Positions 6,410-64,000 of a DNA stretch of 64,000 bases are shown piece after piece (the stretch's first letter is position 1; the number at the start of each line of letters is the position of its first letter). Source of the stretch: a virus (lineage: Duplodnaviria > Caudoviricetes). The notes beneath the pieces are model-generated. The model was not told where the DNA came from. It made no database searches and was given only the letters and a program-made list of their open reading frames with translations. The stretch covers positions 96,001 through 160,000 of the IMG/VR virus record IMGVR_UViG_3300021400_000138. One strand, 5' to 3'. A program made the translations under genes and the position numbers.

Positions 6410-6422
6410 AAATCATTCCTCC

Positions 6423-7555: not shown

Positions 7556-7585
7556 AATTAATTCTCCTTTTTATTTCATAATAAT

Positions 7586-8509: not shown

Positions 8510-8541
8510 ATATTCTCACCTCCTAATCATTGGTTGTCTTA

Positions 8542-9491: not shown

Positions 9492-9500
9492 TTCCTTTCT

Positions 9501-11033: not shown

Positions 11034-11052
11034 ATACATCATTCCTTTCATA

Positions 11053-11090
11053 AACAAAAAAGAAGAGGCTAAAATTAAGCCCCTTCTTTT
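11053..11090 (-). terminator. intrinsic terminator after tail fibre
   Basis: AAGAAGGGGCT-taatttt-AGCCTCTTCTT followed by T run. Confidence 0.65.
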
Positions 11091-19393: not shown

Positions 19394-19423
19394 GATATTC
19401 ACCTCCTCTCAAAATGATGTATC

Positions 19424-21934: not shown

Positions 21935-21950
21935 TTAATCCACCTCCATT

Positions 21951-24900: not shown

Positions 24901-25703
24901 TCATCATAGTTCCAATCACGAATAGTTAAATCGTTATCTCCACGTATACGAAATCTCGTAAAAATAGAATCTTCATTTACAGATATATTTACACTTTTTG
25001 CAAGATTTCTAAATCCAATAAATATACCAGTATCTATATCTAACGCATTTCTGGAATGAGCATTAATTTTACAATGTAGAAAATCAAATGTGAATAAGAT
25101 GCCAAGTCTTGGCCCAACTTCTGTAGTTAAAATTGCATACAAGTTTGAATTCTCTAAAGAAATATTCGGCACTTTCAATATTTCCATAATTCTATCAAAT
25201 TCACCTATGCTCCAGAAGGACATTTTACTAAGAATAATATCCAGGAGAGATAACTCTTTATTTGCATTAACTACTGTGACATAATTTTTAGCAAATCCAA
25301 GTTCGTTAACATTATTAGATGCCAAATATTCTAATGAATCGCTTTCTCCTGTATTTACCTTAAATCCAAGCCAATCCTTATCTTCAAATTCCTTCTCTGC
25401 GGAATAAGCCGTTACTGTTTTGTACTCCTCGTTACCATCGTATTGTTGAGTAGGAGCCTATATTTGAAAATAACCTATTTCATCAATAAACAAATACATA
25501 TAGGCTTTAAGATCTTCATAACCAGCAGATACAACTTGCTAACCATCGACAACAATAAAACGATCTACGTCAAACGATAATTCTGAATAATCCTTTACTT
25601 GTTTATGCAGCTCAACTGTTTCTGTACGAACACCATTTAATGCATACAAAACTTGCCTATCTGGGGTGCATAAATAAATAATCTTTACATCTTGAATCAT
25701 CAT
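21951..25703 (-). CDS. Tal-like tail tip / baseplate hub protein (1250 aa, TAG-recoded)
   Basis: ATGA-coupled to Dit; five track fragments in one frame; position downstream of Dit and TMP. Confidence 0.75.
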
Positions 25704-26560
25704 ATCAACCAACCACCAACCTTTTTATATGGGGCATAATATGAGATTTCTAATGCAACATCTCCTTCGAGAACTAATGTATTATTCCCCGGTAATAATC
25801 TAAGCCAATAAATATCACCGACATCTCCCCATCCAAGATCTTTATATTTTACTATATCCAAATCAACCTAATGATTAATTCCTTGCATATATTCCCTAAC
25901 CATACATCTCTGACAATCAATTACAAAAGTAACAAGAGATCTACTGGTAGTTACTTGCATAAATTTATTATCATCGGTTACATTTGTTAATTTAAATGAT
26001 GATGTTGAGCTGCGAATTTTTCCCGTTACTTTAAACTCCGGATAAACATATTCCTCATACTCATTTGTTTTACAATTAATTACAAAACGCGTAGTAGAAG
26101 AGTAACCACTTGCATCTACATTGCTATAATTGTATTTCTCATATACATATGCATATGATCCATTCACTTGAAAAGTAAATGTACACAATATAAAACCGTT
26201 TACTCCAACAGTCCATTCCGTTGTTATAAACTTTCCAAAATATGAATAAGAATCCCCAGTACAATCAGTTATTTTTAATTCGGATGAAAATCGTGGTGAT
26301 GTTAGCCACGATTCAACTATAACCTGTTCCTATACAGTAAAATCAGTATCATCAGATTTCATTAAACTATATGTGAACTGTAAATGCTCTTTCTAAACTC
26401 CATATTCATTGATTATTGGCTTCGATGCCGTAATCTCTCCGCCTAGATTCGTTCTTGTAATACCTGGAACCGTATCAACAACAGTTCCGGAAACAATTAA
26501 TAATGGAACACCAATAATATTTTCTGTTGACTTATCATAATATTCAAATTTTGCCGTCAT
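25700..26560 (-). CDS. distal tail protein (Dit)-like (286 aa, TAG-recoded)
   Basis: AAAGGAGG RBS; YVYPEFKV..., WLRLLPGNNTL motif; immediately after TMP. Confidence 0.8.
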
Positions 26561-26582
26561 ATTATCCCTCCTTTCTATAATT

Positions 26583-26612
26583 TTTAAAATAGGGAGGCCG
26601 AAGCCTCCCCAT
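26583..26612 (-). terminator. hairpin after TMP stop
   Basis: GGGAGGC-TTCG-GCCTCCC then TATTTT. Confidence 0.7.
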
Positions 26613-26614
26613 AA

Positions 26615-47600: not shown

Positions 47601-50600
47601 GCTCAATATCTCAGCAAAAGACTTTAATGCATCCTTACTTTCGGAGATTTGCTGGAAAAGATTTCCGAATAATCCCTCCGTACTTGTACTAGCAAAAGAT
47701 TTGGTTAAATTCTGTAATTCCGTTTCAAAGCCTTTAATTACCTCTAACTCTTTTTGAATAATACCACTAATGGTTGTAATATCTTGAGTAAAGGCTTCAT
47801 TCTTTTTGTTAATGGCATCAGGCACTTTATTAATCAATTCACTTTCAAGCTCTCCAATAATTTGCTTTTCTTGGTCAACAACGTTTCTAACAACTTCAAC
47901 TTCTCCATTGAAAGCCGCATTTTTTGCACTTATAGCTTCTGGAATATCAACTTTCAACTTATTCTCAAGATCAGCAATGCTTAATACTTCATCTTTTACA
48001 TTGTCTGCTGGAACATCCCCGGCTTCGATCTGCAATGATTTTAATCCAAGAACAGATTGAATACCCTGAATAAGCCCATCAAAACTCTCTGAGAATTTTG
48101 TAATGCTTTCAGTTGATCCCTTAAAGAAATCTGTTGTCTAAAGCATTTCACGAAGAGAAGAAATAGAAGTAGTAATATCCTGAATTTGTTTCAATATAAC
48201 AGGAATACCAGATTCATCATCTATCATTTTGAACACATTAGAGATTTCTTGAATTTCTTTTAATAAACTTTCAAGACTTCCAAGCAACTCTTTTATTTGC
48301 TATTCGTCAAAAGCAGCAGCAACTGGTTTATCCGAACCGTTTGCAACTTCTTCTTGTGCAGACGCAACTTCTCTAATCGCACCAGCCGCGCCTTTAGCCG
48401 CCGCACCAAGGTTTTCCATATCCTCTGTTTCTGGTTCTATAGAAGTAGTAGGAGTAGATGGTGAGGTTTCAACTGGTTCAGATATTACTTTTTTCAACTC
48501 CTCTTTCTTTTTTTGAATTGCTGCAATATAATCTTCGTAAAACTTAATTGTATCTTCATTTTTAGATCTCTTTCTTGTTGCGCTTGCTTTCTTTTCTTCC
48601 GCTTCTAGGGCATCAATATCCGTATAAGAATCGATTGAAGCCATCTTTTGTTCGCGTTCTAACTCAACCTTAGTTTTCTTTTTGGCGGGAGCTTCAGTGG
48701 CTAATTCTCCAGAAGTAGAAGAGGAGAGTTTGGTCCATTTTTCTGTTACTTCATCAAATGTATATCCAAGTTCTTCGGCCTTTTTATTAAGTCTTTCTAT
48801 AGCTTGTTCGAATGGAAGATCTTGAGTTGTTATTGCCGCTTCCAGATCTTCGACGGTGTTTTTTAATTCTTCTGGAGCTTTTGATGCTCGGGCGTTGAAC
48901 TTTGTTGATAAATCTTCTGGGGTTTCATTAGATATTTTCTAAATATCCGCCTTAAATTTATTTTTCTGCTATATCAACTAAACAATTTGATTTTTTGCTT
49001 CTAATTCAGAAATTGCGCCATTGTAATAATCTATAAGCACCTATGCAAATTCTTCTGTTTTATTTTTTAACAATCTAACAGTGGCACCAAGAGCCTCATT
49101 AGATACCATCGACATTTCAGGATTTGATGTTATACTAAGGCCAGGTAAACCATATTGCTCACCATAACTATCACCTAAAACTCCACGATGCCCAGCAAAT
49201 CTAAACAAATACTATTCAACTGTCTCTTCCGGATTAGAAATATTATCTACGCTCGCAGAATTATTAGCTAATTTAAACACTTCTTGTAATGCTAAACTGA
49301 GTTCCTTTGCTGACATGGTGGCTTTATTTAACCCTTCAGAAATCTATTCCCCCATCTATTGACCAGTTTGCCCAGCTTGAACTTCTGACTCAGAAATAGT
49401 TTCTACTTGAGATGGGAGAATAGTAGTACCCGATGAAATCGGATTTTCACCAGATGTTTCGCGTTGTGTATCATTTAACTTCCCAACAGAATCTGCTGCG
49501 TCATCAGCAGCGGCAGCAATACCTTTTAACTTTTCTTCTGAAGATTCTGGAACAACAACGTTAATAGTCTATATCTTTTCAAAGCTTTCAACTAAGCTTT
49601 TTGTCTTATCAATCAATGTTTGCATTGCCGTGTTTAGCTATTCAAGATAGGAAATATCTTGATCAGATACGCCAAGTCCTTTTGCAAGAGTATTTTGTAG
49701 TTGCTATAACGCTTGTGCCAACTCACCAACGACACCTGACGCCTCTTTGGCTTCTTCTTCTCCACGCTTATCAATTGATTTTCCTAATATTTCAAAGGCT
49801 TCCTCTCTTAAAGATTTTCTATTATCTTTATGAGATGCGTTGATATCATTTATTTTTCTGATCTCAGAAGCAATATAAGACATCTCTGTACCGGGAGCAC
49901 GACTGGTTCCTTTACCTGTTAAATATTTGTAAACATCATAATATGGATTTTGTTCTAAATAAGAAGCAATTCTTTTTTGGTTCTATTCTTTCCATTCCTC
50001 AAATGAGCTAAGACCAGAATCCAAATATTCAGAGCTAAATTTTCCCCAAACATCGTCTTCCAACATTTCACTAATAGCTCTCTCCAAATTCTTCATAAAA
50101 TCCATTACTGCCTATATTCTTTCTTCTGGGTCTTTATTTTGTTCTATTACAGAAGATCTGCTGAAATATTCAACTATATCTCTTCCTGACGTCATCTACC
50201 TAAGATAATCTGACGAGGTAAGACCAACGAGAAATTGTTGCGGATCGCCTTCGTCTCCGCCCAATATTCGTTTATAAGCATCGCGGAATATAGAAAATAT
50301 CTTATCATAGGCATCTGTGTATCTCTTTGCTTGCCTCCTCCATACGTCTTCCTCAGCTTTAATCCTTTGTTGAACATCAAGGGAAGTGTCTTCTCTTAAA
50401 TTAACGTTAAACTCACTTTTCCCTATCTTTCTTTGCATTGCGCGAAGTCGTTCCCTTACAGACATGGTATCATTTCTAGCCGCGCCAGAACTACCATCAC
50501 CGATTACTCCGATTGATAAAGAAATATTATTTAATATACCAACGACTTCATTAAGTGCATTACTAAATGCTTGAATATTATCAATACTAAATGCGTCATC

Positions 50601-51935
50601 AATAGAAGAACCGATATTATTCAACTATTGCAATAAATCAGATAATCCACTTTTATCATCAATAGTGTCAAAACTATTCGAAAGTACCTAAACAGACTCC
50701 ACTAGTTGCTTTATTAATTCTATAAGAGCCTTTATTTCTTCCGATCCCCATGCATCACCTGGTTCAAAGTTTTGAACTGCCTCATTTAGTTTATTTTGAA
50801 TATATTCTACCTTGTCTGCATATTCTTGGTATTCGCGTAGGCGATCTTCCATATTTTCATTACGCAATTTATAATGCTCATCATCACCCGTATTATATGA
50901 ATCAACAGCGTGTTCGTCCCAATACTTAGCATCATCTAATGCCTCATCACGAAGCGCCTGAAGTTCTTTTAATGCCTTCTTATATCTTTCTATCTTTGGA
51001 AGATCCTCATCAATTGTAAACGAATAATCATTGACTTCCCAATCATACTCAATTTTATTCTTCCCTTTATATTGTGATTCTGCTTTTTTCTTTAATTCTT
51101 CAATAGATCTATAAGCTTTCTTTTGTCTTTCTGCCGATTCTTCTGTTGCCTTTGCCGCTTTCTCGGATGACTCCGCTGACTTTTCGCCAGCCTCCTCGGT
51201 TTTCTTCCCTGCATCTTCAGCAGCTTTTCCTTCTTCCTTCATAGAATCCGCTGTGTCTCCCGCAGCTTCTGCGGCTTTTGCCCATTCAATAGTATTGATT
51301 TTCGGGAGTTCTATCTGTGCCTTTTCAAACATTTCAAAGGTAGCACCAGCTTCTTCTCTTAATTCATCAAAATATCCAAAGACTCTTCTAAGATTTTCAA
51401 CTCCAAAAGTATTTCCCTTTTCTGGTTGTAGCGCCTCTAATTCTCGCATCCTATCTACAAATTCTTTTAGCTGTGGACTAACTTCTTCAAGATTGCCACC
51501 AAGTGCCTCAAAAGCATTCGCATATCTGAATACTTCAGTTGACGCTGTATTTTTAGGATCAACCATTTGATCTATAGTAAAGTTATTTTCTTTCTGTATA
51601 TTGCCAAGTTTATTCCATGATTCAATCAAGGAAGCCTAAGCATTATTTTGTGTTTGATAATATTTTTGTGCGTTTGTAACTCCGCGAATTGCGCCTGGTT
51701 CTGAAAGTTTTCTGGAATAGGCTTCCTCCATTCTTCGTTTAATTTCATTTACCTTTTCTTCATTACTTGGATCAAAGTCTATTTTGATTTTAATATTCTC
51801 TACTTTTTTGCTTGTAGCTCTTATTCCTGCTTCAAGCTCATCCGCTTTTTGTATTATTTTGTCTACTTTTTTCGAAAACTAATCATCATTCTTAATAATC
51901 TCGGCAACATCTATATAACCACTTTTCACACCCAT
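26615..51935 (-). CDS. tape measure protein, ~7473 aa; exons 45024-51935, 44527-44709, 42659-42928, 42218-42232, 28972-41966, 26615-28661; TAG=Gln
   Basis: AAGGAGGTG RBS/ATG 51935; track fragments in-frame across TAGs; splicing restores TMP motifs DKLNLVG|NNFAVSTDELA, RTISLRIAG|TEEAK, EALA|GKNRS|NIASSILLN, ALEGL|TDAESKAQKARL. Confidence 0.88.
28662..28971 (-). ncRNA. group I intron A in TMP (310 nt, no ORF)
   Basis: P1 GCCU/GGGC with U.G at splice site; TTCAACGACTA and GATATAGTC P7 strands; terminal G; removal fixes the frame change between 29304-29618 and 28034-28561. Confidence 0.9.
32250..35600 (-). repeat. three ~406-435 aa tandem repeats inside TMP
   Basis: GEEI.F..., DEDALVNE..G.E.I.R.G...E.P.GMH.EHLK.G.VILN recurs; equivalent Gln codons at 34899, 33594, 32376. 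Confidence 0.85.
41967..42217 (-). ncRNA. group I intron B in TMP (251 nt)
   Basis: P1 GGAGU/GCUCC; P10 AATATT pairs with exon start AATATT; CGTAACGATCA / TATGATCT P7; ends GTAACAAAATG. Confidence 0.85.
42234..42659 (-). ncRNA. group I intron C in TMP (426 nt; boundary ambiguous by 1 nt)
   Basis: AATTGCAGGTAA, GCAGCCAAG, TTCAACGACTA, AAGAAATAGTCT core motifs; P1 GGCU/GGCC. Confidence 0.85.
42929..44526 (-). mobile_element. group I intron D in TMP carrying a homing endonuclease (1598 nt)
   Basis: P1 CGGGU/GCCCG; CGTAGAGACTG / ACACAGTCC P7; ends GTAACAGATTG. Confidence 0.88.
43130..44398 (-). CDS. intron-encoded Vsr/DUF559-like (PD-(D/E)XK) homing endonuclease with Zn fingers and NUMOD1-like repeats (422 aa, 4 TAG)
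   Basis: AAAGGAG RBS; CTRC, CSNC; PTDIVNHRLKIAIEVQGQWH...RDNIKKQYWINRGY; YGSYADAARDN repeats; fragments 44030-44428 and 43226-43612 in one frame. Confidence 0.8.
44710..45023 (-). ncRNA. group I intron E in TMP (314 nt, apparently ends in A)
   Basis: P1 AGGU/GCCU; P10 TGTT pairs with exon AACA; CGTAACGACTG / TATACAGTCT P7; ends GTAACAGATCA. Confidence 0.85.
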
Positions 51936-51952
51936 TTACTCACCTCCTTATT

Positions 51953-52606
51953 TTAACTAATATAATCTAAAATTGAATACTGTCCCCAAATATAATCCAT
52001 GGCCTCTTCATATCTTTTCTAAAGAGTGGTTCCGGATCTATTTGGTTTACCGTTTTGATAATTCTATAAATCAATCTCAATCCACTCACTTGGCGGATCT
52101 GACTTCTTCGCAAAATTTCCCCATAATCCATAAGGTTTTAAACCATGGCTTTGTTGATATAGACCAGGAACGGGCGTTCTCCATAAAGGCGCAAGCTTCG
52201 ATCCATAAAACTCAGTTCCTGCATCATCTTTCGGCCCATAGTTTGCACCACCGTGATAGCCCTTTTCAAACATATATTCAAATATATATGCTGGACCAGC
52301 GTCACTTTTGTCAACTCTATATCCAGCAGGATAATAAGAATCTGGAGCCATAACCCAACGTATACGAGATCCTTTTACTTTAATATGATACATATCATAT
52401 AATCTATGTTTTCTATCATAATATTTTGGATCATAATCATCATAATAGTCCTTTACACGACTATCAAATATATCCTAAATATCATCAGCTATTGCATATG
52501 CCGTTTCCTTCGATAATTTCTATATGAATTTTCCATTTTTAAAATCATCAGAAATTTCCTTTAATGCAATTCTGAATTTAGTTAATTCATTAAAAGCATC
52601 TTTCAA
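51953..52606 (-). CDS. tail/neck-associated hypothetical protein (217 aa, TAG-recoded)
   Basis: TTG 52606; YYDDYDPKYYDR..., FEKGYHGGA motifs; immediately upstream of TMP. Confidence 0.65.
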
Positions 52607-52637
52607 AATATCACCACCCTACATTTTGATAATCGTA

Positions 52638-52672
52638 AAAAATGGGGTCAAACTTTCCAGCCCAACCCCATA
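52638..52672 (-). terminator. putative terminator ending the Gln-rich module
   Basis: ATGGGGTT...ACCCCAT inverted repeat followed by T run on minus strand. Confidence 0.5.
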
Positions 52673-52723
52673 TATTAATAATCTACAGCCACAATATATT
52701 ATTTACTTATCAACAAACGTCTA

Positions 52724-53140
52724 TCAATTGTTTCCAATTTGATCAATTAATCTTCTAATTGACTGTTTATCCTGTTCATCCTAAGCTTCATTCATTAAAT
52801 TTTCCAATTTCATAATCATATGATCTTTTGCGTCATCGCGGCTATATCCAGAACGTCCACCTCTACGAGTGTATCCGCTACCACCACGATAACTATTGCC
52901 TCTGTCATTATAGTACCTAGAAGAATACCCACCACGCTGAGAATAATTTCCGCTTGCAAGAGAATATTCATCTTCCGGTACATAAGCGCCCTCTTCAAAC
53001 ATCTCTACTGTACCGATATCTTTTAAAATATCTACCAGTTCGCCAATAACACAAACAGAATCTTTATCCAACTGATTACGATGAGAAATCTATTCAATCT
53101 CATCATATACAAGATCTTTAATTCTATCAAATTCTTTCAT
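52724..53140 (-). CDS. helical protein with G/Y/S/R low-complexity insert (138 aa, 2 TAG)
   Basis: MKEFDRIKDLVYDEIEQ...YSQRGGYSSRYYNDRGNSYRGGSGYTRRGGRSGYSRDD. Confidence 0.8.
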
Positions 53141-53157
53141 CGAAATTCCCCCTCTCT

Positions 53158-53625
53158 TTACCGTGTAACAACCAGATCTGGTCGCGTAATAATAATATTT
53201 GCGTTTTGAACCAGAATAGGCTGATCAGAAGTATTACGTACACTAATTGTTTCACAACATCCGCGCCAAATCTGAGCATTGATTGCCCGAGAAATATTAA
53301 AATATTCTTCAACAGCTGCGGGTGTCGATATCATAGTAGAAGAGGGTATTGTTGTCCCATCAATAGCGATAGCGACCGAAATTGGTCCAACTGTACCGCC
53401 AGTAGGAATTGCAATATTTGCTCCAAAATCAACGAGATAATTTGCACTATCCTTTTGTCTGCAACGGCAACAACCATTATAAGGAACATATCCGCTCAAT
53501 AAGAAACTACCAGTATCATCACGGTGTCTTATCAAACCTCGATTACACGGAACCGGAGATTCAGTGAAGATAATGGATTCTCCGGGATTTACCGTCTAAA
53601 CGGCATTTGCAGAATATTCAGCCAT
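53158..53625 (-). CDS. BclA C-terminal/C1q-like beta-sandwich protein (155 aa, TAG at codon 10)
   Basis: MAEYSANAVQTVNPGESIIFTESPVPCNRG...YLVDFGANIA...ISVRNTS...NANIIITR; fold assignment is inference. Confidence 0.7.
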
Positions 53626-53632
53626 ATAATCA

Positions 53633-54688
53633 TCAACCACCTTTCACATATTTTTCCTGAATATCTTTTAAACTAATTTTATAATATTGTTTTAGAAATT
53701 CATCAAACTGTTCCGGTGTATTATGACCATAGCCATATTCTCGATGAAATAAAACATGAATCTCTTTAGATATTAAAATACCAGAATAAGAATCATGCTT
53801 CTAAACTATCTTGTTTAATAGCTCTTTATATTCTGTTTCATTAACGAAATCGCTAATCTTTGCTCTTTTGCTTTCAATATCTATATCCAATTCAACTACA
53901 GCTTCTTGAAAAATAGTGCTTAAAGAAATTAGATGATGAATATCTGCATTTATCCCATATTCTCCAGAAATAGGGCATACCTTATAACAATTACGTATGT
54001 CATTTTTCCAAATAGTAAGTGCTTGTCTAATATTATCTTCCAATAGTGAAATACCACCTTTATAATTCCAATGATTTTTCCCACTTCTAGCTTCAATTGC
54101 ACACTAATTACAACTAGAACAGTGCTGTAAAAATTGAGATAATATCAGTTGACACTTATGTCCATTTTGACACAAACATTCTACCGGAGTATACGCGTTT
54201 TTATATTCACCAATAATTTTATAACCTTTCTAAGAAAAAATATATTTTGCGTCTTCGGCTGTATATTTTGTTTTAGCTTTAATTAAAGCCATATGTCCAC
54301 ACTCAGGACAACGATCTTGTCCAGATGTAAACTTCTTTAACGATTTTTCGAATATATTTCCACAACTACATTTTATCAGTAATTTTGAATCAGAATTCTT
54401 ATAATCTCCCTAAACATATTCACAGCCATGATCTCTTATAATATCGATAACATGATCCAACGAAAATCTATTTTTTTCAGAAGCTATTTCATGCGAACAT
54501 TTCTCACACCAAATCCTTCCACGATTAATGTGTTCAAAATCTCTTTCAAAAATCTTACCACATTTTCCACATTTTAATTTCAAAAGAGTACTGCTATTAA
54601 CATACTCCGTTGATAACAACTCTGTTGTACCATTTGAAAGTTCAAATATTCTTTGTCTTACTTCATCGATAGTTTTTCTTTTTGGCAT
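53633..54688 (-). CDS. free-standing HNH endonuclease with Zn-ribbon repeats (351 aa, TAG-recoded)
   Basis: repeated LLSTEYVNS...KCGKCG...WCEKC; ADIHHL...IHVLFHREYG..HNTPEQF. Confidence 0.8.
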
Positions 54689-54717
54689 AATACACCTCTT
54701 AATTTTATATGACTAAA

Positions 54718-55446
54718 TTAATTACTGCATCCGCAACCATAGTTCATTCCAAAACAATTATTTTGAGGTACGATATATGCGGGAACGGGTACGGGGTTCA
54801 GATACTGTTCAAGAGCTAATGTCTGTGCAGCATTATCAGCAAGAATCCGTCCAGTCTGGGCTGTCTGAGAGGCGGCAAGATTAGCCATTGCAAGTTGCTG
54901 CTGGAGATTAGCAATCTGCTCGTTCTTAGCATCAATTTTGTCCTGGCACATCTGATCGAGAATTCTCTGGGTAGAAGCAGTGTTGGCGGCAATTACGTCA
55001 CGAAGTGCGTCACTTACAGCTGCTCTGTCTGCACATGCTTCCTAAGCAATGGTAGCACCAAGATTGGCCGTGGCCAATCTTTGCTCACAACAACATGATT
55101 GCTGATTCATAGCAATTGTATTCATCTGGTTGGTAATATTTGCAAGACTATTTGCACGAGAAATTTCTGCATTAGCAAAACCATTAGAGATAGCAGAAGT
55201 AATACCATTAATTCCAGAAATAACAGCTGCTTGATCAAATCCAGACTAAACATCATTCGCTGTTGCATACGGAGGCATATAACCCATTCCCATCTAACCG
55301 CCGCCAAATCCGTTGTTTCCCCAACCATTATTGGCAAAGATGAGAAGAATAAGAAGCCACCATGCACCATTGTTGCCACCAAAACCATCATTGTTGTTGC
55401 CCATAACAGCCGCCAGATCAGCGGCACTCATTTCAGAATTCATCAT
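54718..55446 (-). CDS. Gly/Asn-rich TM + Gln/Ala coiled coil + Cys-rich protein (242 aa, 3 TAG)
   Basis: GFGGNNGAWWLLILLIFANNGWG, DVQSGFDQ, QQSCCCE, NPVPVPAY...CGCSN. Confidence 0.8.
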
Positions 55447-55622
55447 AATGATTTCCTCCCTTTCTTAGAAAAATTAGGTTGATATAATATGGCTGTAAAT
55501 ATTAATACCGAAATCAAAATGATCAGATATTATTTATATTTATATAAAAATATATTAATAATCATTAATAGTCAAACATTTTCAAATATTAAAACACTCA
55601 TTAATAATTTTCTTTAAGTGAG

Positions 55623-57686
55623 TTAAGATGGTGTATTATCAACAGGTGTTCCGTTTAGATAATAGCAACTATCAAAATGTGTTTTTTCCGGTCTATTATC
55701 TGTCACTGTACTATGTCCAACACGAAATACACAATTTGCAAATTGAATACCGCCACCATTCTCAATAAAAATTGGAGTATAACTACCGAAATTGCAATTA
55801 GATAAAATAATTCCTTGAGAAGAAGCTAACTTGATTTTCCCATAGAATATTGAACATCCATTAAATATCTCGCCAGCTCCCATAGCATTTATATCAAGGG
55901 CATACCCATCTCCACGTCTCCCACTGTCATAATCTTTTGAACCAGTGTGATTAATTGTACAGCCTACAAATGCTCCATGACTATTATTGTTATAATTTCC
56001 TGAAGAATTATCCATTAAAACGCCATGCATATTTGTACTAAAATCACAATTTACAAATACATTATTTCCTCCATTATTTATAGCTCCGTAGTAGTTTTCA
56101 AAGAAGCCTGATCCAGATATCCTATGAAATTCAGCAATTTTACCAAGTGCAATACCTGCATTACAATTTCGTACAAAAATGTTATTAATATAACATCCGC
56201 CCTGCGGATTGTATCCTGTTCCAGATATATATATACCCGTTCCAGCAATACTACTTATACGAACATTTTCAACTTCACAACGGAAACGCTGAGAATCACT
56301 TGATCCTGTACCCTGAATTTTAATACCACAAGGTACAGAAGACGCTAATTCCCATTCAGAAGATGGAATTATATCTGTTAAAGAACCATATATCGCCAGA
56401 TTTTTTATTTTTGCATCGACAGACAAACTAACCATATAGTTAGACGTTGGATTTGATGTTTTAATTAGTCGTGTATTATTCCCACATCCTTCAATTGACT
56501 TATTTGCATTAATATCAATTTTATCAATATAATAATCACCCGGTGCAAGTCTGCATATATTTTTTGCTACCAGAATTCCTTCAATTTCTGGTCCACGATT
56601 ATTTAATGTACCGTCTGGAAATATGTCATAGCCTGTATATAATGGATCATTGTTAATAGTAACCCATTCTGACCAAACATTATTAACCATAACCCGTATA
56701 TACATTATTTTTTTCGTTGCATAATTAAATGGCAGTCCTAGTTGAAAAAAATGACCTTGAGTGTTGTTCGTAAATGAAACAATACATATACCATTTGCAG
56801 TAGGAAGATGCGCAAATCCAGCAGAAATCGCGTTAGTATGCACAGACACAATGGAATTAACTGGCAAGTCATCACAGTCAGAATAAGTTGATTCCATATT
56901 ACCAGCGGTTATAATCAATTCAGAAGATTGAATCGCACGGGGATTAAAAATGTTTAATGAGTATGGTACATAGCCAGAAGCGGCGTTACCTTTTTCTATT
57001 TGAAATTGTTTGATATCCCATATTGTTTTGCTATTATTACTGTATGCAATGACTATCCTTGATACTGTTTTTCCTGCTGTGGTAGTTCCGTACTTGTACA
57101 GATACGTACTCTGCGAATTGGAAAACTGGAACAGCAATGATGATGTGTTATCTGTATAGAAAGCATATACCCCCAAGCCATTATTTGTAAGCGCACTTGT
57201 TGTCTTTGCCTGCAAAGAAACAGTATACTGCTGTCCGGCTTCGTACTCTACTCCGTATATGTCACCATAAGTGTAAAGGGTATGAGGAAGAGCACTGAAA
57301 GTATCTCCATCTACAGTTATATTGGGTTTTGTCTTAAGTTTTTTTATGTCAAAAAGATTTACTCCCGTCTTTGATATCTGACTTATATCGTCTATTAAGT
57401 TTTCTATATTCTGATCTAAATCATCCCTTAAAGAAGAGACATCACTCACCAAACTACTATAATCCTCTGGAATACTATTCAAAATTTCTTGTGCCTGTTC
57501 AGCATAATATTTACTATTATCTTGATACCCAGGCTCTGTAGAAGATACCGCAATACCATTCCTAGTTCCCTTCGCATATGCCTCTGCATCATAAGTTATT
57601 TTTTCTCCCATTACATCAACGTTTACATAATTCCCAGTAATAGGATCCTTATATTTCACCGCATTCGGTTTTAAAGTAATAGGCAT
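55623..57686 (-). CDS. tailspike-like beta-helix (pectate-lyase fold) protein with carbohydrate-binding-like domain
   Basis: fibre-type N-terminus (DNSKYYAEQA), LAPGDYYI...SIEGCG, repeated N/G/C beta-helix rungs; no TAG in 687 codons. Confidence 0.75.
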   Translation of the reverse strand: MPITLKPNAVKYKDPITGNYVNVDVMGEKITYDAEAYAKGTRNGIAVSSTEPGYQDNSKYYAEQAQEILNSIPEDYSSLVSDVSSLRDDLDQNIENLIDDISQISKTGVNLFDIKKLKTKPNITVDGDTFSALPHTLYTYGDIYGVEYEAGQQYTVSLQAKTTSALTNNGLGVYAFYTDNTSSLLFQFSNSQSTYLYKYGTTTAGKTVSRIVIAYSNNSKTIWDIKQFQIEKGNAASGYVPYSLNIFNPRAIQSSELIITAGNMESTYSDCDDLPVNSIVSVHTNAISAGFAHLPTANGICIVSFTNNTQGHFFQLGLPFNYATKKIMYIRVMVNNVWSEWVTINNDPLYTGYDIFPDGTLNNRGPEIEGILVAKNICRLAPGDYYIDKIDINANKSIEGCGNNTRLIKTSNPTSNYMVSLSVDAKIKNLAIYGSLTDIIPSSEWELASSVPCGIKIQGTGSSDSQRFRCEVENVRISSIAGTGIYISGTGYNPQGGCYINNIFVRNCNAGIALGKIAEFHRISGSGFFENYYGAINNGGNNVFVNCDFSTNMHGVLMDNSSGNYNNNSHGAFVGCTINHTGSKDYDSGRRGDGYALDINAMGAGEIFNGCSIFYGKIKLASSQGIILSNCNFGSYTPIFIENGGGIQFANCVFRVGHSTVTDNRPEKTHFDSCYYLNGTPVDNTPS

Positions 57687-57688
57687 AT

Positions 57689-57997
57689 TTAAACACCTCC
57701 TTTATTAAGTTGGCCCATCACTTGATTTGCCATCTGACTTGCTTGATTCAATTGATTTACATTTCCATTCATACTCAGATAATTAATAATCTGTTGAGGA
57801 TTATTGCGAACTGATTGTAAATCATTATATTGCTGCTAATTAATTTTTCCATTATTAAATAAAATATCTAAAATTTTGCCAGGATCATTTTGAATCTACC
57901 TATATTGGCTTATTAATCCCAGTATTCCATTATTCCCACCAGAACGCATTCCTAAGGATTGATTATTTCCAAATTTATTAAACAAGGGGTTTGCCAT
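57689..57997 (-). CDS. Gln/Asn-rich small protein (102 aa, 2 TAG)
   Basis: MANPLFNKFG...NDPGKILDILFNNGKINQQQYN...NNPQQII; missed by the ORF track. Confidence 0.75.
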
Positions 57998-57998
57998 A

Positions 57999-58583
57999 TC
58001 ACTTATTCCCCTTTCTTTGTTGATTATTTGTTTGTTGTGGTTTACTAAAATTTGTTATTCTATTTTCGATATCTTTAACCTGTCCACTTAAATTATCCAG
58101 ATGATCATTCAGTTGATTAAACTGGTCCTCTGTAACATATGCACTAAGATTACTTAAACGATCATTTAAAGAAGAAAATTGTTCATTCAACGTATCAAGC
58201 TAATCTTTCGTTGCATATTCTACTGGCGGGGCAGAAGCATATGCGGCATTAACATTTTTATCACCATTTGATCGTTCCGTATAATCAAGCACTGTAACTT
58301 CTGGTTTTCCAGAAGCATCAACAGATTTTATATATATTACAGGTTCCTCCGAATCAAAGAAAACCATTTTTCCACCATTAGGAACATATTGTGCCTTAAC
58401 CGAGTTTTCACCCTGTATCCATATCAAATTTGTATTAGGAACATTTGAAGGCTGAGAATAAGATGGCATCGCGGGTTGTTGCTACCAATTTCGCGCCATA
58501 TAAGCCGGGGTATTTACCACTGTTGGCTGCACACTTTGATAATACATATTTGGCTGATAAGAAAATCCATTATAATTATCCAT
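57999..58583 (-). CDS. Gln/Pro/Tyr-rich N-terminus + small beta domain + coiled coil (194 aa, 2 TAG)
   Basis: LIWIQGENSVKAQYV...FFDSEEPVIYIKSVDASGKP; joins track ORFs 58200-58469 and 57999-58190. Confidence 0.8.
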
Positions 58584-58968
58584 TGTCATCCTCCTTCTTT
58601 TTATAATAATAAATTACTACTTCATCACTAGAATCCCAGGAATCATATACATTTCCGTCATCAACTGCAACGGCATGCGTTCCAGTGGCAACTATATATT
58701 TTCCATCCTTATGATCTAAACAAAACTACCTCAACGTATAACAATCAGGACAAGTATTTGGAAGATTCTCCCTAATATATCCTTTAGATTTAAGATAAGA
58801 TCCCCATACATAATTTGAGGATGGCATATCATATAGATTATAAGCTTCCACCATCAATTCAGTAAAAGTTTCCTCCCACGACTAATTTTCGATTCTACAA
58901 ATAGCCCTGATTACACAATCACCAACCATTTTGTTCCCAGGATTTGGATTATAAAAAACATAACTCAC
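58576..58968 (-). CDS. papain-like Cys-His-Asp peptidase/transglutaminase-fold protein (130 aa, 2 TAG)
   Basis: YNPNP...VGDCVIRAI...GTHAVAVDDGNVYDSWDS; GTG start with GAGGTG RBS; missed by the ORF track. Confidence 0.72.
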
Positions 58969-58995
58969 ATAATCACCTCTTGAATAATCAATAAA

Positions 58996-59406
58996 TTAAA
59001 TAGAATATTTATTGGTAAATAGATCATCGGTTACCATTTGGATAACCATATTAAATTCCTTCAATTCACGTTGATCAATATCATCAATAATATAATCAAA
59101 TATTTTTCGCTCATTTAACTTATCAAAATCAGATATAGAATTATTTTTATTAATTCGTTCTATGTCAGTATATGCATCAAACAATGCCATACATGTAGTA
59201 ATATACTTATTTACAGAATCAACATGTATGATACATTTCTCCTCGTCAGATTCTATTGTAAAAGATTTATCAATAATGCTATTTGCAATTTTTACTTTCT
59301 TTTCGATTGGAATATATATGTCCTTAACATGACTTTTTATAAAGTTATACTTTTCACCATCTGCCTGTTTTTGATCAAAAAATTTTAAAAAAATATCAAT
59401 CTTCAT
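58996..59406 (-). CDS. hypothetical protein, paralogue of 59403-59927
   Basis: shares HVDS..K, YTDIER, EFN motifs. Confidence 0.65.
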   Translation of the reverse strand: MKIDIFLKFFDQKQADGEKYNFIKSHVKDIYIPIEKKVKIANSIIDKSFTIESDEEKCIIHVDSVNKYITTCMALFDAYTDIERINKNNSISDFDKLNERKIFDYIIDDIDQRELKEFNMVIQMVTDDLFTNKYSI

Positions 59407-59927
59407 CTATTAGAAACTTCCTTTAATGCGTTAATCAAATCGTCTGTATTCATATTACTAAGTACTGGTGCCAAAGTATTTCCAACAAGTGTCCCAAATC
59501 TTTCAACCTGAGATTTAATAAATTCATGCGGTTCATATTCATTTGCCAGCGTATCCTTTGCAACACACTCAATAATAGTATTAAATTCATCCGCCTCAAC
59601 AGAATTTACACCCGCCATAATTTTGGCAAGTGCGCCACATTTTTGAAGCATATCATATTCTTCGAGAATTGGATCTTCTTCGCCTCGCTCAATATCTGTA
59701 TACATATCTACAAAAGAAATCTTTGTTAACATCATTTTTACACAAGAATCAATATGAAGTTTCTTTGTTTTATTTTCATCTCCTGTTTCAATATAATATG
59801 AAGAATTGATAATGGCATCCGCTCGTGCCATTTTTTCACTTAACGATACATATTTATTGGCCAAAATATGGTCATTCAAAATAAGCGAATTCTCAGTATA
59901 TGCATTTACAAAATCTTTATAATTCAT
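59403..59927 (-). CDS. hypothetical protein (possible tail assembly chaperone)
   Basis: 174 aa, AAGGAGG RBS, HIDS..K, YTDIER. Confidence 0.65.
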   Translation of the reverse strand: MNYKDFVNAYTENSLILNDHILANKYVSLSEKMARADAIINSSYYIETGDENKTKKLHIDSCVKMMLTKISFVDMYTDIERGEEDPILEEYDMLQKCGALAKIMAGVNSVEADEFNTIIECVAKDTLANEYEPHEFIKSQVERFGTLVGNTLAPVLSNMNTDDLINALKEVSNR

Positions 59928-59939
59928 AAAATCCTCCTT

Positions 59940-60092
59940 TTAATCGTCGTAATAATCTCGCATTTTTCGTGCGGATTTTCTGTCTCGTTCTCTATCACTC
60001 TCATCAATCTACTCATAAATAAGTTCCATTTCTTCTTCATCAATAAGATCACTAAGTTGCGATAGATCAATGTCTTTAATGTATTTACTCAT
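59940..60092 (-). CDS. small acidic protein (50 aa, 1 TAG)
   Basis: GGAG RBS, MSKYIKDIDLSQLSDLIDEEEMELIYEQIDES... Confidence 0.5.
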
Positions 60093-60186
60093 ATATTCAT
60101 TTCTCCAATATATAGAAATATTGCACCTCATATGCTATAATCATTTTGTAACCCGTCAACCCAGATTAATAGAAAGGAGGTGCAAT

Positions 60187-60324
60187 ATGCAACTTGTACT
60201 TGCTATTACCTTCCTTGAAGTACTGAGATAGTTAATCAAACTAGTTATTGTACACACAATTATTAACCATCCAGAACTGTCAAAGGAATAGGTTGAGGCT
60301 ATGACTTCTATGTATAAACATTGA
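60187..60324 (+). CDS. small hydrophobic protein, type I toxin-like (45 aa, 2 TAG)
   Basis: AGAAAGGAGG RBS; MQLVLAITFLEVLRQLIKLVIVHTIINHPELSKEQVEAMTSMYKH; extended -10 TGCTATAAT at 60133-60141; terminator follows. Confidence 0.6.
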
Positions 60325-60348
60325 GCCTCAATTCTTTAATCTCACACT

Positions 60349-60382
60349 TCACCGTAGTCTCCCGAAGGCTGCGGTGATTTTA
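60349..60382. terminator. terminator between convergent genes
   Basis: TCACCGTAGTCT-cccg-AAGGCTGCGGTGA-TTTT. Confidence 0.65.
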
Positions 60383-60814
60383 TTCTATTGTATTTACATA
60401 TATCTCCGTCCTCGGATTATCTTTGTCATAATCCGTTTTTAATGTAAGTGATTTAAGATGCTATCCGTCATCGTCGCATATAAACCCAGCTTCACTAAAC
60501 GAATCCAAAATAAATTTTGGCGTAGTGTTGTCAGGATCTGCCCTCCGTTGGCTAGGCATATACGTAATAAACGTCATCTCAAACTTTTCTAGTTTCAAAC
60601 TACTATATCCAAGTTTATTAATCCACCATACCCCGAAATCTTTCCACTTTTGTTTCAGTGCATTCATTTGAATCCTGGGAAGAATCATCCATGAATTTAT
60701 AGTTGGATGCATTGGCCTTTCAATAGGTTTTTTCCTAGCCCGTGGATGTTGTTTAAAATAAAAATCAGCATATTCATCAATTATATGCTGATCCAAAACT
60801 AACTTATATTCCAT
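60380..60814 (-). CDS. RusA-like Holliday junction resolvase (144 aa, 1 TAG)
   Basis: RRADPDNTTPKFILDSF...DDDG(Q)HLKSL...DKDNPRTEI. Confidence 0.75.
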
Positions 60815-60824
60815 AACATCTACC

Positions 60825-61260
60825 TTACTTATACAACTGATATTTTTTACTTATCTTCGCCGCAATATCATCTGGAAGAGGGCGAAATCCAATACAAGTA
60901 AGCGTCCTGCCAACACCAGATTCATCGTATTCTTTCAGTAAGACAGCAATCTTTTATTAGAAAATAATCCTCATTTTCTTTTAGTCCTAATTCATTAGAA
61001 ATTGTGCATACTTTTTCTAATTGATATTTATTCTTCGCCTCGCAAATTATTTTGGTAAATATTCCATTAATCCAATTATCCCAAGTGTCTATGTCAAATT
61101 GAACATAAGAGATAACTCGCTCAGGTTCAACAGAAGATATATCACATACATTCTTGCGAATCATGTTTGTAAGAAATGCCATTGAAGCATGTGAAACCTG
61201 GGCGGCAAGTTTTCCTGGGGACATGTTAAGGTCGCGACGAACGATTATTATTTGTTTCAT
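60825..61260 (-). pseudogene. pth2: peptidyl-tRNA hydrolase Pth2, frameshifted near 60934
   Basis: KQIIIVRRDLNMSPGKLAAQVSHAS; the C-terminal GRTLTCIGFRPLPDDI..KI...QLY lies in another frame after CLTE. Confidence 0.75.
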
Positions 61261-61274
61261 AACTTTATACCTCT

Positions 61275-62300
61275 TTAAATAAAAGCCTCATCTGATTCAT
61301 CCGTCAAATCAGAACGAATAATGTAGCTTGATTCGGTTGTTTCTACCGATTCATGACCAAGTAACTTCTAAGCAACTTTCGGTGATTTATGTTCATAAAC
61401 AACAAGATTTGTTGCCTTACTTTCACGCCAAATATGAGACATAACACGACGGCCAACAAGTTTTGTCAATAATCCAGAACACCATTCGTTGAACGTTGTC
61501 TCACTTACTTGTTTCACATTTCCATCTTTATCTTTGGTAACAAACAAATATGGACAATCATCATCACCACGAACTTCCAACCATTTCTTTATTGCATCCA
61601 TAGCGTCTTGATCAAATTTAAGGCGACGTCGCTTGCCCTCTTTGCTGGGTCCCTTCGCTCGAAGAATATGTGTTGTATAAAACCTAGATATTCCGATTTG
61701 TTCTTTTCCATCTTCATCAATATATTTAATCTCTTTAACAATAGGTTCATAATCTGCAATTTCTTTAAGAAGTTGTCTTGTCTCCGCTCTACGAGCAGCC
61801 GAGCTATATGAGAATTTTACATAAGCAAGAATTTGCCATTTTTCAAGCTCTTCAAGTTTATTGTAAAGATCTTCCATTTCTTCTGGAGTAAGAGGATGTT
61901 TTTCATGCACAAACCCTGTTTTTACAACTTTCATACTTGAGGTAACAAAACTTCTGAAAGTCGGATATTCATCTTCATAGTACTCTACTATATAATTGCA
62001 AAAAGAACTAATAACAGATTTTTTCATTTTTATTGCAGACTCTGAAAGACCACGATTTGTAAGCCAATTAAGATATCTTACAAATTCTTTTTTCTTTATA
62101 TCAACACAATCTTTATCCTTTAATGATTCATGTACCCACCAGAAAAATATTCGAAGAGCAGAAGAGTACTGAATTTTTGATTGATCACTAAGTTCAATTT
62201 TGTATTCTAAAAATTCCTAGACCATATTACGGTTAAATTCATTTACTTGCTGCCACATCTCATCAGTTATTTCATCAGAGTGTTTCGCAACTTGACCCAT
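61275..62300 (-). CDS. second tyrosine recombinase (341 aa, 2 TAG)
   Basis: AARRAE (R), SHIWRES (HxxR), VA(TAG=Q)KLLGHESVETTESSY (H,Y). Confidence 0.85.
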
Positions 62301-62320
62301 TGTCATCACCTACCTTTATT

Positions 62321-62563
62321 TTAAGACAACTTCCTCTTACACCAAAGGTCATAACATTCCTTAGAAGAGTTCTTATCAAAAACAAATACCAGAACATTCT
62401 TCCCAGTATTTCTATCCTAACTAGTATATATATCAATCAGTTCGACGTCATTCTTTATATACATAGCCGCCTAGTCTATATTAAGTATTCTTACAACATC
62501 TTTGCTAAAATAATCATACCTTTTTCCTGTTACCTAACTTCGTTTAATGAATTCATCGTCCAT
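62321..62563 (-). CDS. small conserved phage protein (80 aa, 3 TAG)
   Basis: GAGGAGG RBS; VVRILNIDQAAMYIKNDVELIDIY...VLVFVFDK...YDLWCKR. Confidence 0.65.
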
Positions 62564-62564
62564 A

Positions 62565-62798
62565 TTAAGCCTCCTCTCTGAGTACAGAAATAATAATCTC
62601 CGACGTTTTAACAAGTTCTTCTTGTGCATAGGGACTATCTGAAACATCCTTTAACAATCCACGGGCAAGATAGAGGGGAAGATTAGTAACGAACTCATCT
62701 TCCTCGTCTGTAGTTTCGTCATAGGATGTTTTGATTTTATCCTAGATTTGGTTATATCTATCCAGGACTGATCGTGTATTTGAATAGAAATCTATCAT
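62565..62798 (-). CDS. hypothetical protein (77 aa, 1 TAG)
   Basis: AAAGGAG RBS, ATG 62798, TAA 62565. Confidence 0.55.
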
Positions 62799-62820
62799 GA
62801 TTGTTTTCTCCTTTTAGTCA

Positions 62821-63660
62821 TCAAAAATCTAACATTGTTTCGTCTATTTCTAGGGTATCTGAGTCATATTGATTCATATATTCATAAACATCGAAATGTT
62901 CCATAATACCAAGTTCTCGACGTTTTGTATTTACATATTCTTCAAATTGTTCTGGAGTATTATTGTATCTGCCATACACATTATGAAAGCTACCTTCAAA
63001 AGCAGTGCTATGATATTTCGCTCCAATACACACTCCGCAATTTATATCAAACCTTGTATTCGGATATAGTGCAAATGAATATATATGATGAACTTCAAGA
63101 TTCTATGTCTCACCAGATATAATACATCTGCCCCGATCTTTCTCTATAACTCCTTTACGAAATTGATAATATTCTGGAGTTTTTCGCAAATCTTCTGTTT
63201 TTTGAATTTCAGCTTTTGGTCTTCTATGTCCGATTGAACCACGACATGTAAGTTTTTTGCCAGATGTAAGTTTATAAATAGAAGAGGATATAACTTGTCC
63301 ACATGAACATTGACAAAAATAATATGGCATACGATTACTATTATTTGATTTTTCTTCATCGTATCCAATAACTGTAAGTTCACCAAATACCTGACCCGTC
63401 ATATCTTTCGGATTATTGTATTCACATTCCTTACAAATCAATTTATGATCTGGCCTATCTACTATATTTAAAATTCTTCTTAATTCACTTTCGTGTATTC
63501 CGTTAGGGCATTTAAAATAATACTTTTGCTTCGTCCCATACGGAATCTCTGATGGCAATTTATCATTCTTTTCATAATCCCAAAGATCTAATATATCATG
63601 ACGATTATTTGATAAACACCATTCTTCAAAAGTCTATTTGTATGTATATTTATTTCCCAT
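62821..63660 (-). CDS. Zn-ribbon HNH endonuclease (279 aa, 2 TAG)
   Basis: AAGGAGG RBS; WDYEKN..PSEI...YFKC; CIISGETQNLEVHHI...FHNVYGRYNNTPEQF. Confidence 0.8.
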
Positions 63661-63772
63661 ACTTCTACCTCCTTAGAGTTGAATCTCCTGATATAGTTAA
63701 ACGCAATGCGGAGAAGCCAGGAGGAGCTTCTCCATATAAGAGTGATCAAGTTCTTATATTTATTGCGTTTGC

Positions 63773-63865
63773 TAAGCCCGCTGGAATTCGAATCCAGATT
63801 ACCTCCTTCAGAGGGATATCACGCTTTTAGAGAGCGGTGCACTAGTCCAGTTGTGCTACGGGCCT
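63773..63865 (-). tRNA. amber suppressor tRNA, anticodon CUA, long variable arm
   Basis: acceptor AGGCCCG/CGGGCTT; D arm GCAC/GTGC with GG; anticodon stem CGCT/AGCG with loop CT-CTA-AA (63828-63830); T arm CTGGA-TTCGAAT-TCCAG; no encoded CCA. Confidence 0.88.
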
Positions 63866-64000
63866 ATATATTGGACAGTAAAAAATACCGTCCTTAAAAT
63901 AAAAAGAGCAGATAATCCACTCTCAAATTACAAATAATGTTTATAAAAATAATCGTTTATCATATCTACTACTTTATCCTCAAGATGATATTCTTTAATC

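Follow-up and report, generated by a model that had tools for sequence, protein, structure and literature searches.

The window analysed here (the whole stretch of 64,000 nucleotides) covers positions 96001-160000 of a phage genome of 185,390 bp, which is complete and has direct terminal repeats and a G+C content of 34.6%, and it contains on its minus strand a transfer RNA (tRNA) gene with the amber-reading anticodon CUA, hereafter tRNA(CUA). Between the decoding arm and the T arm of this tRNA lies a second arm, whose loop appears to copy the anticodon loop of tRNA-Gln. The reading that we favour, with moderate confidence, is that this gene is the only amber suppressor tRNA of the phage, that it inserts glutamine (Gln) at UAG codons, and that its second arm acts as an identity anticodon for the Gln-charging enzyme of the host.

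The meaning of TAG in this phage is shown by codon alignments to be Gln. Counting TAG as a sense codon raises the coverage of the window by long open reading frames (ORFs) from 37 to 60 kb. In the late region (minus strand, genome 102-185 kb) there are 195 in-frame TAG codons, distributed over 37 of 59 ORFs and amounting to ~19% of the presumed Gln codons, and the plus-strand early block has essentially none. The phage's own ORFs, with TAG translated as X, were aligned to five related phage records found via the portal protein, which placed 85 TAG positions in alignment; opposite these, 52 of the 135 non-TAG codons encode Gln (CAA/CAG), followed by serine (13), aspartate (12) and asparagine (12). 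With substitution profiles taken from the same alignments, the log-likelihood for Gln at TAG beats that of the next residue by 138 nats; leucine, serine and tyrosine are each far less likely than Gln at these columns, with serine 163 nats below it. The reverse comparison agrees, given that 3.8% of the phage's own Gln residues stand opposite a TAG of the relatives and every other residue does so in at most 0.5% of cases, a signal that holds individually for three of the relatives (G002, G003 and G005). Among portal homologues of less than 50% identity, the Gln fraction is 0.20 at TAG columns and 0.18 at true Gln columns, and the same columns give no tryptophan, tyrosine, leucine or serine signal. 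A preliminary description of this DNA, made from the sequence by a model, had read TAG as Gln from the proteins, and the 138-nat margin bears it out; its alternative, that a different residue is inserted, finds no serine, leucine, tyrosine or tryptophan signal at the TAG columns. The same description had proposed to look for other CUA tRNAs in the rest of the genome, and a search of the complete genome returned this gene as the only one with a CUA anticodon.

That the gene is a genuine tRNA is confirmed. The Rfam model RF00005 scores it at 46.1 bits (gathering score 29 bits, E=1.8e-8) over its full length (1-71), and ARAGORN also detects it. Across 22 homologues, 93.4% of the cloverleaf cells are paired and 17 of the 26 pairs have compensatory (two-sided) changes, a result matched by none of 500 shuffles (coordinates and arms are given in the table). 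Every feature listed in the preliminary description (CUA, the 23-nt region, A1-U72, G2.U71 and A73) is present in the sequence, and in the 7-bp reading the acceptor end of this copy is A1-U72, G2.U71, G3-C70 and A73. The description had also mentioned a possible eighth acceptor pair; ARAGORN indeed draws it for this copy (U-1:A73, leaving a G as discriminator), but the -1/73 pair is not conserved in the homologues and an 8-bp acceptor stem was rejected as a trait of the family. The decoding loop CUCUAAA has seven nucleotides, with U33 and a purine at position 37, as expected of an amber suppressor. Its stem contains a C27.U43 mismatch that is invariant in the homologues, as well as a compensatory change from G30-C40 to C-G that was found in this copy only.

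The body of tRNA(CUA) differs from those of tRNA-Gln, class II tRNAs, tRNA-Sec, allo-tRNAs and tRNA-Pyl. The body of tRNA-Gln (U1-A72, G73, a 3-bp D stem GCC/GGC, an AAG-GGUAA loop and a 4-5-nt variable loop) is excluded by A1-U72, A73, the 4-bp D stem and the 23-nt variable region, and the phages' own tRNA-Gln genes differ from it; the earlier view that the body is unlike tRNA-Gln is thus upheld from the acceptor end, the D stem and the variable region. Class II tRNAs (Leu, Ser, Tyr) share the long arm, but here the D stem has four rather than three base pairs and the body is Trp-like. tRNA-Sec and the allo-tRNAs (8/5, 8/4 or 9/3 geometry, with a 6-bp D stem in Sec) were rejected on the 5-bp T stem and the 4-bp D stem. 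The label given by ARAGORN is Pyl, because the anticodon is CUA; tRNA-Pyl has a 3-nt variable loop, a small D loop and a 6-bp anticodon stem, and this tRNA has a 5-layer anticodon stem and a 10-nt D loop. Outside the window, at genome 42028-42167 (L005:1468-1607), there is a separate tRNA whose body is of the Gln type (U1-A72, G73, D arm GCC-AAGAGGUAA-GGC). It has a 67-nt insert in the anticodon loop, below the size of a group I intron, and ARAGORN labels it as Pro(UGG) with an intron; if the insert is excised one base earlier, the loop becomes CUUUGAC, which is that of Gln(UUG).

Two folds of the variable region were compared across 30 arms of 23 nt (19 of them distinct) that align without gaps; the members with variant arms had been found by a scan for the decoding arm. 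In the first fold, which in this copy has the stem UCC/GGA (63816-63814 with 63806-63804) and the 7-nt loop CUCUGAA (63813-63807) with CUG at 63811-63809, the three closing pairs are paired in 98.2% of cases, and their covariation is 0.604 against 0.194 for shuffled alignments, with none of 500 shuffles reaching it; the pair types are CG, GC, UA and AU at one pair, and UA and CG at the next. The second fold, the 5-bp hairpin with a GAA loop (CCUCU-GAA-GGAGG) that the preliminary description had drawn, is 93.7% paired (91.7% when shuffled) and has a covariation of 0.185 (0.147 when shuffled); 28-36 of 500 shuffles match it, and two lineages have C.C and C.U mismatches. This hairpin was therefore rejected as no better than shuffles and unsupported by covariation, even though it is the thermodynamic optimum of this particular sequence. 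The loop consensus in the supported register is C-U-[C/U]-U-G-A-[A/C]: it starts with a pyrimidine and a U comparable to U33, followed by the triplet CUG or UUG and then by an A comparable to A37. The second-arm loop thus looks like a copy of the tRNA-Gln anticodon loop rather than part of a class-II-type arm, a point missed when the long arm was first likened to those of Leu, Ser, Tyr and Sec tRNAs. A Shine-Dalgarno role was also considered, since the arm holds AAGGAGGU, but was rejected: variants have GAGGG, GCAGG, GUGGG or GGGGG at this place, and other lineages are devoid of such a sequence.

The sequence of the variable arm is also found in 17 further tRNA(CUA) genes from viral contigs of 150-205 kb and in one contig of a Bacillota metagenome-assembled genome (MAG). 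Nineteen nucleotides of the arm are identical across 18 homologues, and the acceptor, D and T stems vary among the members with compensatory changes. The 5' half of one member (L060) is 92.7% identical over 40 nt to E. coli tRNA-Trp (trpT; E=1e-5, 5426 of 5426 genomes), and the present copy was placed in this Trp-like family by its alignment to the members. On its own, this copy gave only chance matches in blastn against E. coli, with no E. coli tRNA among them; blastn against GenBank phages gave only chance T-arm matches, and a search of the viral contigs for the exact D-arm/anticodon pattern gave none. The main differences between the family and trpT are C35 to U, G43 to U, a weakened first pair and the inserted arm. 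These similarities suggest that the body descends from tRNA-Trp and corresponds, at the level of the family, to that of the E. coli amber suppressor su+7 (supU); the D arm, previously called Arg-like, belongs to this Trp-like body instead. Together with the codon statistics, the similarity to tRNA-Trp rules out an origin from a class II tRNA for Ser, Leu or Tyr. At the acceptor end, the 1-72 pair of the 18 close homologues is A-U, U-A, A.C, U.U or G.U and never G-C, as it also is in 12 more distant members, and the discriminator is G73 in 16 of the 18 close and in all 12 of the more distant ones. The family thus seems to carry glutamine identity marks at its acceptor end, namely a weak or mismatched 1-72 pair and, in most members, G73.

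The two-arm design is seen well beyond this arm sequence. When long-arm tRNAs were sought regardless of what the arm contains (CUCUAAA and a T loop 26-40 nt further on), at least 13 additional ones with a CUA anticodon came up; the stems of their arms are unrelated (GCC/GGC, GC/GC, CUGG/CCAG and others), and their loops are UUCUGAG, CUCUGAA, CCCUGAA and UGCUGAG; two relatives of this phage have yet other arms, with the loops GUCUGAU and UUUUGAG. From lineage to lineage the stem differs (GCC/GGC, GGG/CCC, CUGG/CCAG and others) and the loop is kept. Among the matches listed from the fetched loci, an NN-YUG-A-N loop closed by at least two pairs occurs in 33 distinct long variable regions, where 0.73 would be expected from shuffles; after removal of false positives (one ordinary tRNA-Glu and three non-tRNAs), this makes 33 of the 36 distinct long-arm CUA tRNAs listed, the exceptions being a supD-like tRNASer, one ambiguous case and a tRNA described below (L102). 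The spacing is also constant. In 32 of 38 tRNAs, including this copy, 9 nt separate the second loop from the T stem, and in the rest 8 or 10 nt do so. A distance of 9 nt, made up of one strand of the stem (5 nt) and a variable loop of 4-5 nt, is the canonical one for an anticodon arm. In the same 38 tRNAs the first arm always begins 1 nt after the D stem, with 3-11 nt between the first arm and the second loop. Each arm is therefore canonically spaced with respect to one side of the core, the first to the D stem and the second to the T stem.

The exception L102 provided a prediction that could be checked. This tRNA belongs to G157 (L334-L341), a 146-kb phage with 23 tRNAs and 201 in-frame TAG codons, where it is located at G157:10262-10354 (L102:7800-7891), directly after an ordinary tRNA-Trp(CCA). 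It has the same decoding arm, ACCGGUCUCUAAAACCG, and a second-arm loop GUCCAAA, which is that of the tRNA-Trp anticodon arm; if the second arm sets identity, G157 should read TAG as tryptophan. At four of the five TAG columns of the G157 endolysin, tryptophan is present in 118, 120, 112 and 74 (plus phenylalanine in 42) of 120 homologues, and the seven TAG columns of an HNH-like protein include four at which it outnumbers every other residue and two at which it is frequent. Within the endolysin alignment, the phage studied here has TGG at two of these tryptophan columns, and its own two endolysin TAG codons fall at variable columns of the Lys/Glu/Gln type. A genome-wide codon test of G157 against the clade of the phage studied here gave TGG at 4 of 15 positions, too few being shared. 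The prediction passed, and these alignments indicate that G157 reads TAG as tryptophan. The loop type thus varies with the amino acid, CUG/UUG going with TAG as Gln (here and in G002, G003 and G005) and CCA with TAG as tryptophan (G157). A database protein (P0121) that is 95% identical to the HNH-like protein of G157 has Gln at six of the seven G157 TAG positions, five of which have tryptophan as the commonest or a frequent residue in homologues; evidently, the gene caller applied code 15 to a phage in which TAG is tryptophan. Two opal tRNA(UCA) genes (L236 and L259), with A1-U72, G73 and an encoded CCA, also have a long arm, here with a 5-7-bp stem and the loop GUCCAAA. These arms copy the tRNA-Trp anticodon arm and may represent a TGA-to-Trp counterpart of the two-arm design.

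Within the complete phage genome, no recognisable Glu/GlnRS, Trp/TyrRS, GatB, release factor or CCA-adding enzyme domain was found. The search for GlnRS, GatCAB and release factors that the preliminary description had called for was thus negative for GlnRS, GatB and release factor domains, and its suggestion of a phage-encoded synthetase forming a natural orthogonal pair with this tRNA finds no synthetase domain behind it. The endolysin domains (Glucosaminidase, Amidase_2, PG_binding_1 and SH3) have a Gram-positive architecture, and for one portal homologue the annotated source is a Lachnospiraceae MAG; a Gram-positive member of the Clostridia is the probable host. A host search of species genomes with the portal profile found nothing, and a host tRNA-Gln was not recovered from the Bacillota MAG in which a family member occurs. 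Of 149 genomes belonging to the order of that MAG, 105 have GlnRS, and a host GlnRS is plausible. Earlier work shows that tRNATrp(CUA) loses recognition by TrpRS and is charged by GlnRS (PMC2965240; PMC9976931 section 17), that both GlnRS and GluRS recognise the anticodon and prefer a 1-72 pair that is weak, and that an amber tRNASer becomes a Gln acceptor by changes in the acceptor stem, GlnRS tolerating its long arm (both PMC9976931 section 17). Outside tRNAs, the operator of thrS has an anticodon-like hairpin to which the synthetase binds, and a swap of the mimic switches control to MetRS (PMC9976931 section 45).

From this body of comparisons, we infer that the second arm is an identity module for the Gln-charging enzyme of the host. 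In the mechanism that we propose, a Trp body with a CUA anticodon would have been taken by GlnRS, as in su+7, and its acceptor end would have gained Gln marks; the host enzyme (GlnRS, or a non-discriminating GluRS followed by GatCAB) would read the anticodon of the second arm, in replacement of the lost G36. The second arm would give efficient and specific charging and leave decoding to the CUA arm, whose loop would pair with UAG on the ribosome for the insertion of Gln. It can be speculated that either arm stacks alternately under the D stem in one L-shape, which would fit both the spacing and the C27.U43 mismatch.

Several points weigh against this reading. In the standard L-shape the variable arm points off the face to which GlnRS binds, and a rearrangement or a novel binding mode would be needed. 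For this exact sequence, the nearest-neighbour energy is -5.0 kcal/mol for the 5-bp/GAA fold and -1.0 kcal/mol for the 7-nt-loop fold, so that the latter register rests on comparative evidence. In the 7-bp reading, this copy and one other have A73, where the family usually has G73. The Bacillota MAG with a family member has GluRS and GatB and no GlnRS was found in it, a result subject to the completeness of the MAG and to the possibility that the contig is a mis-binned piece of phage. Furthermore, the evidence for an identity role of the second arm is a correlation between loop and amino acid, which comes from a single Trp phage and a single Gln clade of five or six related genomes, and the count of 33 includes many related members, not 33 independent events.

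A fuller version of the proposal, which we hold only tentatively, would see here a split-identity tRNA, with the CUA arm for the ribosome and the tandem CUG arm for the Gln-charging enzyme. The arms would alternate under the D stem with C27.U43 as a hinge, the 9-nt spacing would position the second arm, and phages would retarget a stop codon to Gln or tryptophan by the anticodon of the second arm; the same molecule may also read CAG.

Other explanations have to be weighed against an identity role. The one that survives best, although it is unlikely, is that the Gln- or Trp-type loop is read by some other factor, such as a T-box-type leader, an enzyme that modifies tRNAs or an anticodon nuclease of the host, for which it would be a decoy. 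A conserved loop that tracks the amino acid would suit any anticodon-specific reader, and evasion of nucleases had been proposed in the preliminary description; but no such factor was identified in the phage, none is known for both Gln and tryptophan, and the constant distance to the T stem together with the Gln-type acceptor end points to an enzyme that reads acceptor end and anticodon together. Next comes the idea, to which we give little credence, that the second arm is the structural decoding arm (for CAG/CAA) and the CUA hairpin an inserted extra, or that both decode, CAG and UAG being read as Gln. For this speak the canonical 9-nt distance of the second loop from the T stem, its full set of anticodon-loop features and the invariant C27.U43 atop the first arm, which could act as a hinge. 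Nevertheless, the 195 TAG codons need a UAG decoder and no other CUA tRNA exists in the genome; the CUA arm, 1 nt from the D stem, has five layers in its stem, carries A37A38 and is homologous to the anticodon arm of tRNA-Trp; and the second stem has here only three Watson-Crick pairs.

It is improbable that the arm is purely structural, either stabilizing a weak acceptor end or acting as an antideterminant for TrpRS, SerRS or TyrRS, with a loop that is an accident or the relic of a duplicated arm and would be kept uniform by exon co-conversion during intron homing. The distant members alter the stem with compensation and keep the loop, unrelated stems bear the same loop, the enrichment among the matches listed is 33 against 0.73 expected, and the loop type fits the amino acid in both the Gln and the Trp cases, all of which speak against it even though the identity of 19 nt of the arm in 18 homologues, the group I intron in the CUA loop of five of them, the HNH genes flanking this copy and the resemblance of Trp-type second arms to duplicated Trp anticodon arms could be so understood. 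Finally, charging by a phage-encoded orthogonal synthetase, or insertion of serine, leucine, tyrosine or tryptophan, is very improbable: the long arm and A73 do recall Leu and Tyr tRNAs and serine is the second commonest residue opposite TAG (13/135), but the complete genome has no synthetase domains, serine lies 163 nats below Gln, TGG stands at two tryptophan-conserved endolysin columns, and the 4-bp D stem and Trp-like body are not those of class II.

Table. Position of tRNA(CUA), its arms and the adjoining features (window coordinates unless the genome is named).
Feature	Position	Strand	Details
tRNA(CUA), 93 nt	63773..63865	-	7-bp acceptor stem reading, A73 discriminator, no encoded CCA; Rfam RF00005, ARAGORN, covariation
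Alternative tRNA reading, 96 nt	63771..63866	-	8-bp acceptor stem, U:A terminal pair, G discriminator; ARAGORN drawing
D arm	63839..63856	-	stem GCAC/GUGC (4 bp), 10-nt loop AACUGGACUA; 3/4 pairs covary
Decoding arm	63821..63837	-	stem CCGCU/AGCGU, loop CUCUAAA, anticodon CUA at 63830-63828; 1 nt after D stem
Variable region, 23 nt	63798..63820	-	contains the second arm
Putative mimic of tRNA-Gln anticodon arm	63804..63816	-	covariation, enrichment, spacing
T arm	63781..63797	-	CUGGA UUCGAAU UCCAG; 5/5 pairs covary
Terminator-like hairpin, upstream	63904..63924	-	end of upstream TAG-free gene, ~40 nt before tRNA (L002 1652-1632)
Terminator-like hairpin, downstream	63709..63734	-	~40 nt past tRNA 3' end, weak T tail (L002 1462-1437)
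Late-gene block needing the suppressor	6074..63660	-	genes with in-frame TAG
HNH/DUF4379 (treble-clef zinc finger) endonuclease genes, either side of tRNA	window 62821-63660; genome 160958-162175 (L006:958-2175)	both -	

With respect to the surroundings of the gene, no TAG occurs in the upstream HNH/DUF4379 gene and two occur in the downstream one; both may encode free-standing homing endonucleases associated with intron-bearing and intron-less alleles of the tRNA. A tyrosine recombinase gene lies 1.5 kb downstream of the tRNA, and no theta (hepatitis delta virus-like) ribozyme or other Rfam element adjoining the tRNA or 3' of it was found at E values up to 1. Introns of 175-297 nt directly after U35 of the CUA are present in five homologues (L009:11671-11960, L064:4364-4647, L054, L061 and L066), with Rfam Intron_gpI scores of 43.3 and 46 bits (E ~1e-10), just below the 50-bit gathering score; in these five, splicing would be needed before UAG can be read, and the intron could be a timing switch.

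Some other tRNAs and arms are related to the family. Other phage CUA tRNAs (L086, L091-L097, L099 and L100) have the same Trp-like decoding arm with a normal short variable loop, and two of them (L091 and L095, parsed by eye) have G1-C72 and A73, an identity set unlike that of the long-arm family. An 18-nt arm sequence occurs outside tRNAs at L058:565-582 and L071:472-489, within a longer perfect hairpin (AAUAUCC...GGAUAUU). Beside a two-arm CUA tRNA, in a phage tRNA array of a Bacillota MAG, there is an 84-nt tRNA-Lys(UUU) with a long variable arm (L073:3829-3912; GGAAUAUUCC hairpin); Lys tRNAs are normally class I. Additionally, G002 has a pair of paralogous 88-nt tRNA-like genes with odd folds (162921-163008 and 163547-163634; L013:1576-1663 and 2202-2289), which ARAGORN labels Cys(ACA) and Asp(AUC) with a 6-nt intron, and one of which holds GCUAGU.

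GlnRS and TrpRS depend heavily on the anticodon, which is necessarily changed in a suppressor. If the proposed role is true, a cognate anticodon on a second arm would be a simple modular route to the efficient charging of suppressors by the host, and the two-arm tRNA would be an architecture outside the known tRNA classes. The engineering of suppressor tRNAs would gain a natural design rule from it, and the meaning of a recoded stop would become predictable from the tRNA alone, which matters for annotation, as a database gives Gln in a protein of a phage where TAG is tryptophan. As far as can be told, the following are new: the covariation test that settles the register, the finding that the body is of the Trp type, the fixed distance of 9 nt and the tRNA with a CUA anticodon and a CCA loop in a phage with TAG as tryptophan. 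Neither a long variable arm nor an anticodon-like loop within it is mentioned by Borges et al. (bioRxiv 10.1101/2021.08.26.457843), PMC10879173 or PMC12636597, and no description of the two-arm design was found in the literature on phage recoding and suppressor tRNAs (including a 2025 screen of 213 phage suppressor tRNAs), in a search that left out subscription journals.

The phage resembles others with code-15 (TAG-to-Gln) or code-4 (TGA-to-Trp) suppressor tRNAs in that late genes use TAG as Gln and early genes avoid it, and in that the phage has no synthetase and charging by the host is assumed, for which Borges et al. suggested that host enzymes are "intrinsically susceptible" (bioRxiv 10.1101/2021.08.26.457843); among phage suppressor tRNAs, 19% were reported as Trp-type by isotype (PMC10879173). 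With su+7, the phage tRNA shares the tRNA-Trp body, the change of C35 to U, the reading of UAG, the weak 1-72 pair and, by the codon alignments, Gln as the residue inserted, as well as, in the family though not in this copy, G73. Nevertheless, su+7 is a laboratory mutant with a normal 5-nt variable loop, whereas the phage tRNA is a natural, conserved gene serving ~200 sense UAG codons, with a C27.U43 mismatch, a 23-nt region in which a second arm resembles that of an anticodon and, in many members of the family, a mismatched 1-72 pair. A long helical insertion between the anticodon and T arms is common to class II tRNAs (Leu, Ser, bacterial Tyr and Sec) and allo-tRNAs (PMC5389517), from which the phage tRNA differs by its 4-bp D stem, its Trp-like body and a 7-nt anticodon-type loop 9 nt from the T stem. 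Its geometry is neither 8/4 nor 9/3 (8/5 only in the ARAGORN reading of this copy), and its TAG columns have no serine, leucine or tyrosine signal. Finally, the anticodon mimics of the thrS mRNA operator, of yeast aminoacyl-tRNA synthetase mRNAs and of viral tRNA-like structures are likewise hairpins that copy a cognate anticodon loop; they recruit the synthetase, and another enzyme responds when the anticodon of the mimic is altered (PMC9976931 section 45; PMC6542539). These known mimics are located in mRNAs or viral genomes, where they regulate or tag, whereas the putative mimic described here lies inside a tRNA, beside a different anticodon that does the decoding.

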